A program made the position numbers and the translations under genes. The notes below the pieces were generated by a model, which saw nothing but the letters and a program-made list of their open reading frames with translations, was not told where the DNA came from and made no database searches. A DNA stretch of 64,000 nucleotides from Escherichia phage YW01. The stretch lies in the sequence record PV018828, one strand, 5' to 3'. The number at the start of each line of letters is the position of its first letter. The stretch's first letter is position 1. Below, piece after piece: positions 52,510-62,278 of this stretch.

Positions 52510-52713
52510 TTAGTAGAACGAACGAATTTCATCCCACACTTGTTCCTGTTCTTTCCTATAAAAAGAAAGTTGGGTCTTGAACATCTCCACTGATGATTCA
52601 AAGTTTTTGGTTTGTGCAGCTTCAACGAAACGTTCATGTCGGTTGATTTTGCACCGTAGCATTAAATACTTGGCTTCAAGTCTCCGAAGAGCCTGCCTTT
52701 TCTCAAGATTCAC
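52510..52713 (-). CDS. Hypothetical protein (67 aa)
   Basis: ORF between the GGCT-like gene and the primase-helicase; an alternative-frame ORF (52449..52637) overlaps. Confidence 0.3.
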   Translation of the reverse strand: MNLEKRQALRRLEAKYLMLRCKINRHERFVEAAQTKNFESSVEMFKTQLSFYRKEQEQVWDEIRSFY

Positions 52714-53122
52714 TTTTCAGATACTCTGACCAGTCGCCAGATTCAACCAGAACATCTTGTTCTTCGTCGATATGATAAATCCAAGCGATCACAGTTTCAC
52801 CTGAGTCCATCTTAACAGCAATCTGAGTACGCTGATAGAAGCTGTCTTCAGGGCTACGTTTGTTGTAACCTTCCAGACGGTCATACGGACCTTCCAGACC
52901 TGCTTTGTCAGTAGCAAACACTTCTACACGAACAGGCTTATTGTTATTACTGTGTGCGAGAGAGATGCTAGGGAAGTAGGAACCACCGTAACGGAACAGA
53001 TCAAAGTTGTCTTCAGTCCAACCTTCACCAATTGACTTAGCACCAGCTCGGTCATTAACTAAATAGTTAGCTTGACCACGACGAAGAGAACCATAAGTTG
53101 CTACGTAAATTACTTCTGACAT
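52703..53122 (-). CDS. Gamma-glutamyl cyclotransferase-like (GGCT/AIG2 fold) protein
   Basis: N-terminal YVATYGSLRRGQANY (YGSL signature) and a Glu-containing C-terminal half consistent with the GGCT family. Confidence 0.65.
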   Translation of the reverse strand: MSEVIYVATYGSLRRGQANYLVNDRAGAKSIGEGWTEDNFDLFRYGGSYFPSISLAHSNNNKPVRVEVFATDKAGLEGPYDRLEGYNKRSPEDSFYQRTQIAVKMDSGETVIAWIYHIDEEQDVLVESGDWSEYLKSES

Positions 53123-53123
53123 T

Positions 53124-53333
53124 TTAAATACCTTTCCAGTCTTTCATGATGTTTTCAATGTAAGCACACTGCTGATCAGTGGCTCCTGTTACAAACACTT
53201 CTAACCCCAACTGCTCACAGAAGGGATTAAGAATCAATATTCTGGTTTGCCCATACGAGTGATGCTCTCGGTAGATAACACACCCAGCATCCCATACAGA
53301 GTTAATGGCTTTACTCAATCTTTCATGTTTCAT
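53124..53333 (-). CDS. Hypothetical protein (69 aa)
   Basis: ORF within the amidoligase operon. Confidence 0.3.
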   Translation of the reverse strand: MKHERLSKAINSVWDAGCVIYREHHSYGQTRILILNPFCEQLGLEVFVTGATDQQCAYIENIMKDWKGI

Positions 53334-53386
53334 AAAACCTCCAGCTTATCCGAACTAGCCTCCTCTTTCGAAGAGGCTAAAGCAGA

Positions 53387-53572
53387 TTACTCTGTAATAA
53401 AGATTTTGATTACACCGCAGATTGCTGCACTCTCAAATACTGCAACAGCTTCACTTCCCTGAAAGAAGGCCACTTTGCCGTCAGAGAAGTTAAACATGTC
53501 AGCATCTAGGTCCATAGCTCGCATATCACCAGCGTCGTTAGTATCTTTAAACAGAACTTTATACTTATTCAC
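53387..53572 (-). CDS. Hypothetical acidic protein (61 aa)
   Basis: ORF within the amidoligase operon. Confidence 0.3.
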   Translation of the reverse strand: MNKYKVLFKDTNDAGDMRAMDLDADMFNFSDGKVAFFQGSEAVAVFESAAICGVIKIFITE

Positions 53573-59288: not shown

Positions 59289-59297
59289 GATAACCTC

Positions 59298-60104
59298 TTA
59301 TGCTACCTGAAGGAGTTTGATCTGCTGGTCAGCTTCTTTAACGTTGTTCCCGTTAATGATTTCATGAAGCTTCTCAATCGGAAGGCGAGAGTGCAATGCC
59401 ATCAGAGTGGACATATCACATTGCTGAACAACCTTGTCAACCTGATCGTAAACAAACTTACGGTTTTCACGATCACTAATCCAGAAGTTAGACAGAGAAC
59501 GGTATTCAATACCATAGTCTTTATAACGGATTGCAGATGCTTTACCGTAGAGTTCTTTACGGCGAGTATCTTTGTCCATAATTACTGCTGGGAGAGACAG
59601 GAAGTAGTCACACAACACACCCAGCATCATCTGAGTTTGCAGAGTGATATCCAAAGCACCAACTACGCCAAGATGTACGTGACCACCGGCAGTACGAAGT
59701 CCCTTATTCTGAGAAGTCGGGGATGGGTTTTTCTGACCAGTGAAGGCGTTGAAATCAGGAGTGCACCCGAAGATGAACGCTGATTCATTAAAGGTCTTCA
59801 TCTCTTCTTCAGTGAAGATGTGAGAGCTAACACCCGGAGCTGTTTCCATGTCCAGTTTGTTCAGGACATTATTGGTGAGATCAATACCACGTTGCATGTT
59901 ATCGTTAAACGCTTCAAAACCGCTCTGTGGGTCAATATCAAACTCAGCCAGTACGTTGTCCTCTTGAAGACGAACATCCTTAGCCAGAGTGATCTTATCG
60001 TCCTTAGAACAGCCTAACAGACCAGCCACAGAGGTGATGATGCCATTGCTGGTACGAACGAACATTTCAGGGTCAGAGCCGATAAGGAATTTGCGCTTAG
60101 TCAT
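59298..60104 (-). CDS. Hypothetical protein (268 aa), possible second GS-like amidoligase
   Basis: GSDPEMFV ... LAEFDID ... GGHVHLGV has the same acidic-motif then H-x-H arrangement as 57571..58674; weak. Confidence 0.3.
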   Translation of the reverse strand: MTKRKFLIGSDPEMFVRTSNGIITSVAGLLGCSKDDKITLAKDVRLQEDNVLAEFDIDPQSGFEAFNDNMQRGIDLTNNVLNKLDMETAPGVSSHIFTEEEMKTFNESAFIFGCTPDFNAFTGQKNPSPTSQNKGLRTAGGHVHLGVVGALDITLQTQMMLGVLCDYFLSLPAVIMDKDTRRKELYGKASAIRYKDYGIEYRSLSNFWISDRENRKFVYDQVDKVVQQCDMSTLMALHSRLPIEKLHEIINGNNVKEADQQIKLLQVA

Positions 60105-61068
60105 TGTAATACTCCACTAGTTCAGAAAAGAGAGATGAGATTGTGTTACCAACTTCTTCAGTAGTAAGGCCAGAGCTTGGGCCAGTACGTTGAATTAGTC
60201 GGGCGGTAAAGTTTTGTACTGTAATGTTTCCCAACTTGTCGTCTATTGATTCACGTTTGTGACCATAACAGTTGGACCAGAGTCTTAACCACTCTGACAT
60301 TGTTTCATACTCGTCCGGGTCTTGATCTTTAGCACGAGCAAATCTTCGTAAGGCATCTTGGTTATGGTTACGAACATAACCGTCCTTGTTGTCACCAACA
60401 CCGAAGGGGTTTTGAACCCACACTTGCTTCGTATATTCATCAGAGTCTACAACCAAAGGAAGGAATGCTGCTGCTGACATATTGTTGTTAATAACAACAG
60501 ATGTACTCTCGCTACTCCCATTGGCTCTTCCTCGTTGAGACCATCCACCGAAGAAGTCACGACCTAACCCAGCTAACACTAGAGCGATACCGATGCGTTT
60601 ACGCTTCAGCCACTCTTCCCTGTCTTCAATTCCTTCTGCTAGGAAATCCATTCCACGATATTGCCCTTCCAGAATACTGCGGAAGAGCATAAGTCCTGTG
60701 AAGATCTGATCTGCTGGATGCTCACGAAGGTTGACCGCGACACTATTCGCTGAAGTGATCGTAAATACGTCACGATAGCAAGACATAGAGTTCATAATGT
60801 CTGCTGTTTCAACCAAGTTCTTTTCAATTTCAGATGTAACATGACCATGAAAAGAGTGAGTCCAGTAATTCAACATCTCCAATTGCAAGTTAATGTCGCG
60901 GTCGAAGCGCTTATGACGCCCATCTTCCATGACACATTCGTCATTAATATCATATACGACTTGACCCTGCATGTAGTTGTGGATACCGAAGCATCCACGA
61001 CCTAAGAACTTCTGTTCCCCTAAATCTTGTTGAAGATTAAGAGGTACGATCGTTGTGGAGATTGCCAT
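60097..61068 (-). CDS. Hypothetical protein (323 aa)
   Basis: ORF co-oriented and stop/start-overlapped with the amidoligase operon. Confidence 0.4.
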   Translation of the reverse strand: MAISTTIVPLNLQQDLGEQKFLGRGCFGIHNYMQGQVVYDINDECVMEDGRHKRFDRDINLQLEMLNYWTHSFHGHVTSEIEKNLVETADIMNSMSCYRDVFTITSANSVAVNLREHPADQIFTGLMLFRSILEGQYRGMDFLAEGIEDREEWLKRKRIGIALVLAGLGRDFFGGWSQRGRANGSSESTSVVINNNMSAAAFLPLVVDSDEYTKQVWVQNPFGVGDNKDGYVRNHNQDALRRFARAKDQDPDEYETMSEWLRLWSNCYGHKRESIDDKLGNITVQNFTARLIQRTGPSSGLTTEEVGNTISSLFSELVEYYND

Positions 61069-61078
61069 AACTAACCTT

Positions 61079-62278
61079 TTATTTTCCTAAAAATAATCCG
61101 CTCATAACACCATCCCACTCAGAGGATGAGATCACTGAATATTCTGAACTTTGGTCCAGAGTTCCACTACTAAATCGCTGAACAATGTTATAGATGTTGA
61201 ACAGATCTTTAGTTTCAGCACGAATGCCATAGACTAATTTATTAGCTGTTCTTTCATCTTTAGATACACGACGAGCAAAATTAACTAGCAGGTTGTCGCA
61301 TTTCAGTGTTTCTGATTCATTCTCTACCAAATCGGGATGCATCACCGGCAAGAACATAGAGTTATTTACTCGTAATTCTGCTGTTTCGTCATTCTCATAA
61401 TGAATCCATTTAAAGTCTTCATCACGGAAATGACCACACCCATCTCTGTATGACTGTTGACGCCAAGGCACTTGAAATGCTTCAGCATATTTATCAGCCA
61501 TACCAACCGTAAACAACGACGCTGGGAAGATACAAGCATCCCAATCATTACCAACCAGAGTTGCTTTCGTTTCACCTAAGAGGTTAGTGTAAGTGCTAAC
61601 CATTCGGGAATAAACGTAAGCCTGAAGGATTGTCCAACCTTCAACCAACCATTTATGAAGGAAGGTTTCCACTTGACTCTCTTCATCTTCACAATAGAAG
61701 GTTCGATCTAACATTAAATAGAACAGACAACGATCAGCAGGAACGTTCTCAGTTGCTACACCCATAAAACCTTTTTCGTGCCAGCGTAAACAGGAGGGAC
61801 GATCTTTGTCCACAAATGCTTCCATAGCTTCCAGTACAGCACGAGGTGTGGTTTGATGTTCAGGGTTTTTACTATTCCAACGATCAATGTTATTCTTAGG
61901 AGGTGTGTCTTCATCTTCATACGAACACCAACTTAAAGCTTCAGCTACATGCTTTTCGTCACGCCAGCGTCTAAAACCTAACATCTTCATGTGAGTTCCG
62001 GAGTTCCAGATATGCTTGATTTTACACATATCCATCTCTCGGCTTAACAGGAACTCTTCCCCATCAGCACTACGAACGTTAGCTTCTTCATGCCACACTC
62101 GAACGTGCATATTCCACCCATGAGTTGCCTCATACATGTTAGGGTCGAAGTAGTCATCATCTTCGTCATCGTCTTCATCAACGCCACCGTTATAGTTGCG
62201 AAGCTGAAGGAACCCATAACAAGGAGGGTTGACCGTTAAAACATTACCTTCAGTATCTTCTAATGTTACTGGAAACAT
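61079..62278 (-). CDS. Hypothetical protein (399 aa) with acidic tract
   Basis: ORF with D/E run (VDEDDDEDDDYFD) near the N-terminus; upstream-most large gene of the operon. Confidence 0.4.
   Translation of the reverse strand: MFPVTLEDTEGNVLTVNPPCYGFLQLRNYNGGVDEDDDEDDDYFDPNMYEATHGWNMHVRVWHEEANVRSADGEEFLLSREMDMCKIKHIWNSGTHMKMLGFRRWRDEKHVAEALSWCSYEDEDTPPKNNIDRWNSKNPEHQTTPRAVLEAMEAFVDKDRPSCLRWHEKGFMGVATENVPADRCLFYLMLDRTFYCEDEESQVETFLHKWLVEGWTILQAYVYSRMVSTYTNLLGETKATLVGNDWDACIFPASLFTVGMADKYAEAFQVPWRQQSYRDGCGHFRDEDFKWIHYENDETAELRVNNSMFLPVMHPDLVENESETLKCDNLLVNFARRVSKDERTANKLVYGIRAETKDLFNIYNIVQRFSSGTLDQSSEYSVISSSEWDGVMSGLFLGK

Follow-up and report, generated by a model that had tools for sequence, protein, structure and literature searches.

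The phiEco32-type amide-ligase cassette of Escherichia phage YW01 and its possible gamma-glutamyl chemistry

Gene content and active sites

The 64,000-nucleotide stretch of Escherichia phage YW01 that was analysed (sequence record PV018828; hereafter the window) encodes on its minus strand a block of genes for amide-bond enzymes, which pairs with the cassette gp77-gp88 (phi32_77 to phi32_88) of phiEco32. Five enzymes are encoded: a type 2 COOH-NH2 ligase and an Amidoligase_2 protein, both resembling glutamine synthetase (GS), a class II glutamine amidotransferase (GATase), a RimK-like ATP-grasp ligase, and a gamma-glutamyl cyclotransferase (GGCT). From 52500 to 62700, the window matches Escherichia phages KM01, SU10 and phiEco32 over the full length with 96.7-97.2% nucleotide identity (96.7% for phiEco32), and the sequence places the source phage among the Kuravirus podophages of the Gordonclarkvirinae. 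In annotation tables, the genes of the locus pair one to one with phi32_76-phi32_89 of phiEco32 and gp077-gp091 of SU10. All features given below with window coordinates are on the minus strand.

The COOH-NH2 ligase (59298-60104), which resembles GS or gamma-glutamylcysteine synthetase (GCS), is 100% identical to phiEco32 gp86. It matches phrog_3815 and, above the cutoff, PF14395 (34.1 bits against 25; E 2.2e-8), a Pfam family with the title 'Phage phiEco32-like COOH.NH2 ligase-type 2', and its motifs DPE, GC.PD, GGH.H and EYR are invariant across 42 sequences. The Amidoligase_2 protein (57571-58674) matches phrog_7469 and PF12224 (33.7 bits against a cutoff of 22; E 4.5e-8); G-x-E-x-E-x-E, H-x-H, R130 and E186-x-R188 are invariant across 41 diverged sequences. 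When the two ligase families were aligned to each other with hhalign, a G-x-E-[FY]-R motif was the only thing found in common.

The class II amidotransferase, an N-terminal nucleophile (Ntn) enzyme of 676 amino acids (55461-57491; GATase_6, E 1.1e-14), starts at 57491 and not at the GTG at 57413 proposed by a program-made list of open reading frames (ORFs), because an ATT codon (57489-57491), rare as a start codon, opens the series ATT-TGT-GGC-ATC, read as MCGI(V) with the cysteine right after the start, because an in-frame TAG lies two codons and the sequence AGGTGGA seven bases upstream, and because the RefSeq annotation of phiEco32 has the identical span. Its motifs HSRHAT, VHNG and VDSE are aligned to HTRWAT, VHNG and TDTE of GlmS (PDB 1xff), in which R73, N98-G99 and D123 bind glutamine. 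The middle part of the protein is beta-rich and the C-terminal third carries three Cys4 zinc-ribbon-like motifs (residues 440-467, 487-515 and 641-671); residues from about 250 to 676 match no Pfam family. The neighbouring ligases are candidates for the partners that accept its ammonia.

Start sites of the amidotransferase were also inspected in relatives (L004, about 5663-5704; L003, about 10175-10210). In Pseudomonas phage K4, no ATG, GTG or TTG lies between the upstream stop and the catalytic cysteine, leaving ATT or ATC as the only possible start, and in the Bjorn and P59 genes an ATG directly precedes the cysteine. The deposited annotations of K4 and Bjorn start downstream, so that the catalytic cysteine is left out. 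In the gap of 79 nucleotides before the amidotransferase gene of the window, the ribosome-binding site is immediately preceded by a small hairpin (AAGGG-TTTA-CCCTT, 57507-57520), which is identical in phiEco32.

The protein of 397 amino acids at 53824-55017 is considered an ATP-grasp ligase because it has partial matches to RimK, MptN and Ddl profiles, matches phrog_2599 (E 3.5e-187), and has an orthologue in Proteus phage P59, 42% identical, that passes the Pfam RimK profile (32.9 bits, cutoff 21; E 6.3e-8). The window protein itself scores 16.7 bits against Pfam Dala_Dala_lig_C, under the cutoff of 24, and matches the NCBIfam RimK/MptN model partially at about 1e-7 (31.6 bits against a cutoff of 143). 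Identity to the orthologues of P59, Bjorn and K4 is 35-42%. The protein has an acidic linker and a C-terminal domain of about 80 amino acids, the latter matching phrog_20552. The cyclotransferase (52703-53122; 139 amino acids) is of the gamma-glutamylamine cyclotransferase (GGACT)/AIG2 type, scoring 63.6 bits against PF06094 (cutoff 22.8; E 3.4e-17) and matching phrog_2520; YGSL at residues 10-13 and the catalytic glutamate E84 in DRLEGY can be read directly from it. No transmembrane segment was predicted in any of the cassette enzymes, which are probably soluble and cytoplasmic.

Several conserved proteins without an assigned activity are encoded among the enzymes. The first gene of the cassette block encodes an acidic gp88-like protein of 399 amino acids (61079-62278) with an invariant N-terminal PPCYGF motif. 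Its structure model is confident and has no match among solved structures; Foldseek retrieved only uncharacterised proteins of about 300 amino acids from other cassette phages (those of Proteus, Cronobacter and Aeromonas), often two per genome, and the sequence family is tiny, with 23 clusters in 1.84 billion representatives. The next gene encodes a gp87-like protein of 323 amino acids (60097-61068) that matches phrog_13102 and no Pfam family. The two proteins share motifs in a common order (N-terminal C[FY]G, PAD[RK]..F..LM..R, W.Q..[YF]..G..G[HY].R[DN]), and their hhalign comparison is not significant (E 0.15). From the order of motifs and the Foldseek neighbours, gp87 is probably a diverged paralogue of gp88.

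Between the two GS-like ligases lies the gene of a gp85-like protein of 205 amino acids (58671-59288), the model of which contains only SH3/KOW-like barrels. Disorder is predicted for the segment in which conservation is highest, R-x-P-x-R-x4-G. An acceptor lysine in this loop, as in EF-P and lipoyl carriers, was considered and rejected: the lysine is not conserved in 59 homologues, only R106, G111 and G165 are. Directly after the amidotransferase, a DUF7195 protein of 77 amino acids (55225-55458; PF23825, E 4.7e-17) has homologues in matching positions in P59 (P59_103) and Bjorn (gp24) and a ratio of nonsynonymous to synonymous substitution (dN/dS) of 0.08. Its resemblance to ribbon-helix-helix proteins is a reading by eye that was not retained, the Pfam assignment being DUF7195.

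The gene at 53569-53817, between those of the ATP-grasp ligase and the cyclotransferase, encodes gp79, an inhibitor of host RNA polymerase that matches chain 'gp79' of PDB entries 9m7y and 9m7z over residues 1-82 (E 1.1e-51). This placement is found in Kuravirus-like phages only, and gp79 is embedded in the operon while standing outside its amide chemistry. Five further small ORFs complete the locus. One of 120 amino acids directly upstream of gp88 (62290-62652; phrog_11370) is Kuravirus-specific, and its cluster (c40) always precedes gp88. One of 74 amino acids (55020-55244; cluster c30, 7 loci) occurs only in Kuravirus-like phages and one of 61 amino acids (53387-53572; cluster c41, 5 loci) is Kuravirus-specific, neither having a family match. 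An ORF of 69 amino acids (53124-53333) is variable, being listed in the annotation tables for SU10 but not for phiEco32 and having no orthologue in L009 or L010. The last, of 67 amino acids (52510-52713), corresponds to phi32_76, lies between the cyclotransferase gene and the primase/helicase gene, and has no significant family match. Among the small ORFs and their homologues, none has a conserved C-terminal Glu or Gln or an acidic tail of the kind found in Pup- or LysW-like tags. Longer homologues and neighbours on divergent contigs were searched for informative fusions and gave only Peptidase_C26 and unrelated Toprim and RlaP matches.

All the genes follow one another closely in a single direction. 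Of the 14 junctions in the reported span, five are overlaps of 4-20 nucleotides and the others gaps of 1-10 nucleotides, except for one of 79 and one of 53; over the locus as a whole, these two aside, the widest gap is 11 nucleotides. Scans of the region for promoters and terminators gave nothing above chance, and neither did matches to TAATGTATA, a putative promoter motif of the phiEco32 sigma factor.

The initial annotation of the window, made from the sequence alone, had called the five enzymes at these positions, with the amidotransferase spanning 55461-57491 and ending in zinc ribbons and with a glutamine-synthetase-like amidoligase accompanied by a possible second one. Profile searches confirmed all of these calls, four through Pfam and the ATP-grasp ligase through PHROGs, NCBIfam and the P59 orthologue, and the catalytic residues are kept. 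Of its eight small or unknown ORFs, one is gp79 and another the DUF7195 protein. Some of the interleaved ORFs stand outside the system: gp79 inhibits host RNA polymerase, and phiEco32 lacks 53124-53333.

Conservation and prior description of the cassette

The COOH-NH2 ligase is present in 306 sequenced phage records, and a relative is encoded on 153 IMG/VR viral contig stretches. Co-occurrence was surveyed in 80 viral contigs fetched through this ligase, on which ORFs were called and clustered. Amidoligase_2 was found in 76 of the 80 loci, the class II amidotransferase in 73, the ATP-grasp ligase in 72 and the gp85-like protein in 61. The COOH-NH2 ligase, gp85-like and amidoligase genes are adjacent in 54 loci, the amidoligase following the gp85-like gene directly in 59 of 61, and an unannotated cluster of primase/helicase size, which includes the primase/helicase of phiEco32, adjoins the cassette in 63. 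Forty loci possess a Peptidase C26 only, 18 a GGCT only, 11 both and 11 neither, with C26 present in 51 altogether; K4 gp21, for example, matches Peptidase_C26 with an E value of 9.7e-17. Because GGCT, C26 or both are present in 69 of the 80 loci, cleavage of L-gamma-glutamyl-amines looks like a near-universal property of the cassette. Bjornvirus, Paundecimvirus (Zobellviridae) and Privateervirus share these genes and their order up to the primase/helicase, and all nine genes are laid out identically in a LUZ24-like phage.

Compared with an ECBP2-like relative, the measurable cassette genes have dN/dS values of 0.08-0.38 and are under purifying selection. The cassette proteins are 42-78% identical in this genome pair, in contrast to 94% for the primase/helicase (50693-52483), and gp88 and gp87 have diverged fastest. 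The synteny in four very different genera and on 80 viral contigs, together with the low dN/dS, identifies the cassette as a real co-conserved system and not a product of chance.

The system is already known and widespread, and its finding here is a rediscovery. Papers citing Iyer et al. (2009, Mol Biosyst 5:1636) and Hardies et al. (2013, J Virol 87:9189) name these two as the source of the cassette, describe it as a conserved, putative seven-gene 'peptidoglycan modification cassette' of RIO-1, phiEco32, 7-11, PA11, tf, MR299-2, LUZ24, PaP3 and CW02, and suggest that it acts in superinfection exclusion or readies the wall for lysis. The cassette genes of the window are the same as those of phiEco32, in the same order and in the same position upstream of the primase/helicase gene. 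The differences from phiEco32 are small, namely the 69-amino-acid ORF, shared with SU10, and an endonuclease VII gene inserted just downstream of the cassette region (50256-50699). Full-text literature searches, in which Iyer et al. and Hardies et al. were represented by papers citing them, retrieved no experiments on the function of the cassette. That these two enzymes, the amidoligase and the amidotransferase, matter for infection is hinted at by the directed evolution of a Pseudomonas aeruginosa phage that carries both, in which missense mutations arose in both genes in both lines (PMC11450229).

The initial annotation was thus right on enzymology and wrong on novelty. It had presented the operon as the best candidate for an undescribed system in the window, which is incompatible with the near-identity to phiEco32, SU10 and KM01, with a Pfam family named after phiEco32, and with the published cassette. 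The outcomes that it had named as refuting, namely unrelated folds, lost catalytic residues or a scatter of the genes in related phages, did not come about, and it was fair in leaving the substrate open among a small molecule, a protein and DNA. The analysis adds to the published picture a gp85-like core member, the DUF7195 protein, the gp87/gp88 pair, the near-universal gamma-glutamyl cleavage, the ATT start of the amidotransferase, and the identity of gp79.

Possible chemistry and acceptors

There is about an even chance that the cassette specifies a cytoplasmic amide-ligase pathway that uses a gamma-glutamyl handle and is made together with the replication genes. In the order of reactions inferred here, one of the GS-like ligases would use ATP to join L-glutamate through its gamma-carboxyl group to an amine of the substrate, and more amide or peptide bonds would be added by the other GS-like ligase together with the ATP-grasp ligase of the RimK type. 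The class II amidotransferase would bind glutamine or a gamma-glutamyl amide, and would either deliver ammonia to a ligase-activated carboxylate or hydrolyse the gamma-glutamyl amide in the manner of EgtC. The GGACT-type cyclotransferase would then strip off the L-gamma-glutamyl group as 5-oxoproline, a step that in most other cassette phages may be performed by a C26 gamma-glutamyl hydrolase, carried instead of the cyclotransferase or alongside it. The gp85-like, gp87/gp88 and DUF7195 proteins may be non-catalytic or novel subunits of a complex. The acceptor may be a low-molecular-weight cytoplasmic amine or peptide, the published candidate being a peptidoglycan precursor. Enzymes of the GGCT and C26 families act on L-gamma-glutamyl-amines, and the cyclotransferase requires a free alpha-amino group.

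Several known pathways resemble the proposed one in part. In butirosin biosynthesis, an L-gamma-glutamyl group serves to protect an amine: the ATP-grasp ligase BtrJ attaches it and the GGCT-family enzyme BtrG removes it as 5-oxoproline. The butirosin pathway also has a carrier protein, a pyridoxal phosphate (PLP)-dependent decarboxylase, a monooxygenase and an acyltransferase, none of which is found in the phage cassette, whereas the two GS-like ligases and the amidotransferase of the cassette have no part in the butirosin pathway. In the polyamine pathways of PuuA/PuuD and PauA/PauD, in the N-methylglutamate pathway of GmaS, and in the ergothioneine pathway of EgtA/EgtC, a GS- or GCS-like ligase makes a gamma-glutamyl amide; such amides are cleaved by a C26 hydrolase (PuuD type) or by a hydrolase resembling class II amidotransferases (EgtC type), and C26 is present in 51 of the 80 surveyed loci. 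However, the phage ligases are too diverged for a sequence link to enzymes of the PuuA, GmaS or EgtA type, and the cassette lacks the oxidase, dehydrogenase and sulfoxide synthase partners of these gamma-glutamylation pathways.

Five points weigh against the gamma-glutamyl pathway as proposed. Neither an assay of any cassette enzyme nor a known product was found in the searched literature. Sequence and profile searches gave no credible solved relative of either GS-like ligase, so the carboxylate and the amine joined by each are purely inferred. Zinc ribbons, as in the amidotransferase, and SH3/KOW-like barrels, as in the gp85-like protein, are commoner in proteins that bind macromolecules than in small-molecule enzymes. 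The gamma-D-glutamyl bond of peptidoglycan, in which the glutamate is N-acylated, is not cleavable by the cyclotransferase. Lastly, the 11 loci with neither GGCT nor C26 within 10 kb include Privateer-like loci, although some of the 11 are incomplete.

It is possible, though doubtful, that the cassette modifies peptidoglycan, as published. The three ligases would build unusual links on the stem peptide or on a cytoplasmic precursor and the amidotransferase would amidate a free carboxylate, so that the altered wall would exclude superinfecting phages or the cell would be readied for lysis. No other function has been put forward in print, and the searched literature contains no experiment in its support. 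The enzymes all appear cytoplasmic, which fits UDP-MurNAc-peptide or lipid II as the target, and the ATP-grasp ligase weakly matches D-Ala-D-Ala ligases. Stem-peptide chemistry employs the same enzyme classes, namely the ATP-grasp enzyme Ddl and the glutamine-dependent amidation systems MurT/GatD and AsnB1/LtsA, in which a ligase-activated carboxylate receives glutamine-derived ammonia from an amidotransferase. Yet the fold of MurT is that of Mur ligases, GatD belongs to the class I amidotransferases and AsnB1 has an asparagine-synthetase domain, and Pfam finds none of these in the cassette. Wall modification is further weakened because no Mur-ligase, LysM or other wall-binding domain was found in the cassette proteins or their larger homologues, and because GGCT and C26 enzymes need an L-gamma-glutamyl group with a free alpha-amine and not the N-acylated gamma-D-glutamate of the wall. 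If the wall is the target, the cyclotransferase must therefore work on another, transient L-gamma-glutamyl group. The cassette also lies in the replication module, away from the lysis genes, and gene sets have been reported as similar in viruses assigned to archaea, which lack murein, the likeness being known by report only.

Less probable still, and on balance unlikely, is the modification of a host or phage protein, to which the ligases would attach, or on which they would extend, glutamate or another amino acid. The models would be RimK acting on ribosomal protein S6, TTLL enzymes on tubulin, and PafA on pupylation targets, with GGCT or C26 recycling freed products of the gamma-glutamyl-lysine type. 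The RimK type of the ATP-grasp ligase suits this proposal, as does the fact that gamma-glutamyl-epsilon-lysine is the classical substrate of GGACT. The zinc ribbons and SH3/KOW-like barrels suggest macromolecule binding, the divergence of the cassette proteins relative to the primase is typical of genes for host interaction, and gp79, a host-takeover protein, lies within the operon. Against the proposal, no Pup- or LysW-like tag was found among the small ORFs, the loop lysine of gp85 is not conserved, and no target is known. The Pup ligase PafA and the deamidase Dop are GS-like enzymes that phosphorylate the gamma-carboxyl group of glutamate, which is joined to an amine, but the cassette has neither a Pup-like tag nor a proteasome link, and no sequence similarity to PafA or Dop was detected.

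Modification of DNA or of a nucleotide is considered improbable. In one form, an amide-linked group would be placed on phage DNA or a precursor and would explain the restriction resistance of the Gordonclarkvirinae; in another, to which the same low probability attaches, the product of the gamma-glutamyl handle would end on phage DNA, a nucleotide precursor or the replication machinery, explaining the resistance as well, with the gp85-like and gp87/gp88 proteins delivering the substrate. The Gordonclarkvirinae are reported to resist restriction while having no known modification pathway, and since the window has 11 EcoRI, 32 EcoRV and 11 EcoKI sites, site avoidance does not explain this. In viral contigs, amidoligase and amidotransferase genes of the same two Pfam families occur beside those for the hypermodification of thymidine (Lee et al. 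2021, PMC8989533), and the cassette is directly upstream of the primase/helicase-sized gene in 63 of the 80 surveyed loci. In contrast to those hypermodification clusters, the annotations of SU10 and phiEco32 list no dUMP/dCMP hydroxymethylase or TET enzyme, no 5-hydroxymethyluracil (5-hmU) DNA kinase and no aGPT-Pplase, nor is a transglycosylase annotated, and the thymidylate synthase is an ordinary ThyX. Strong avoidance of palindromes shows the genome to be exposed to restriction, SU10 annotates a separate small anti-restriction protein, and the searched literature makes no mention of modified bases in phages of the phiEco32 type.

The palindrome counts, which bear on the reported restriction resistance, were made over the whole window. 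Twelve six-base palindromes are absent, including CTGCAG, of which about 17 copies would be expected, and GAGCTC, of which about 16 would be, and there is a single CCWGG in 64 kb; EcoRI, EcoRV and EcoKI sites, and GATC with 134 occurrences, are not avoided.

That unrelated enzymes stand side by side by chance, or are decayed passengers of host origin, is hardly credible: several interleaved small ORFs are indeed lineage-specific or variable, but the conservation of the set in distant genera and on 80 contigs already contradicts this explanation, and the intact catalytic motifs, dN/dS well under 1 and translational coupling of neighbouring genes speak against it too.

Neighbouring genes and significance

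The endonuclease VII-type gene of the window (50256-50699; Pfam E 1.1e-19) is located between the genes of the primase/helicase and the DNA polymerase exonuclease subunit, which abut directly in phiEco32 and SU10, and probably encodes a homing endonuclease. Other replication genes are accompanied by those of ThyX (44626-45282), a dCTP deaminase (47809-48342), and a nucleotidyltransferase of 472 amino acids resembling CCA-adding enzymes (48352-49770), which has only a weak match to the PolyA_pol head domain. A working ThyX argues against the published guess that uracil replaces thymine in such phages. A macro-domain protein (33945-34385; Pfam E 1.3e-10), the gene of which adjoins that of the phage sigma factor, could remove ADP-ribose marks.

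Among the phages that carry the COOH-NH2 ligase are candidates for phage therapy of E. coli and P. aeruginosa infections. More than 15 years after the cassette was described, the sole statement about its function is a prediction. Knowledge of the substrate would explain at once what five enzyme families and no fewer than three 'dark' protein families do, and might bring to light a new type of modification of the host or the genome.

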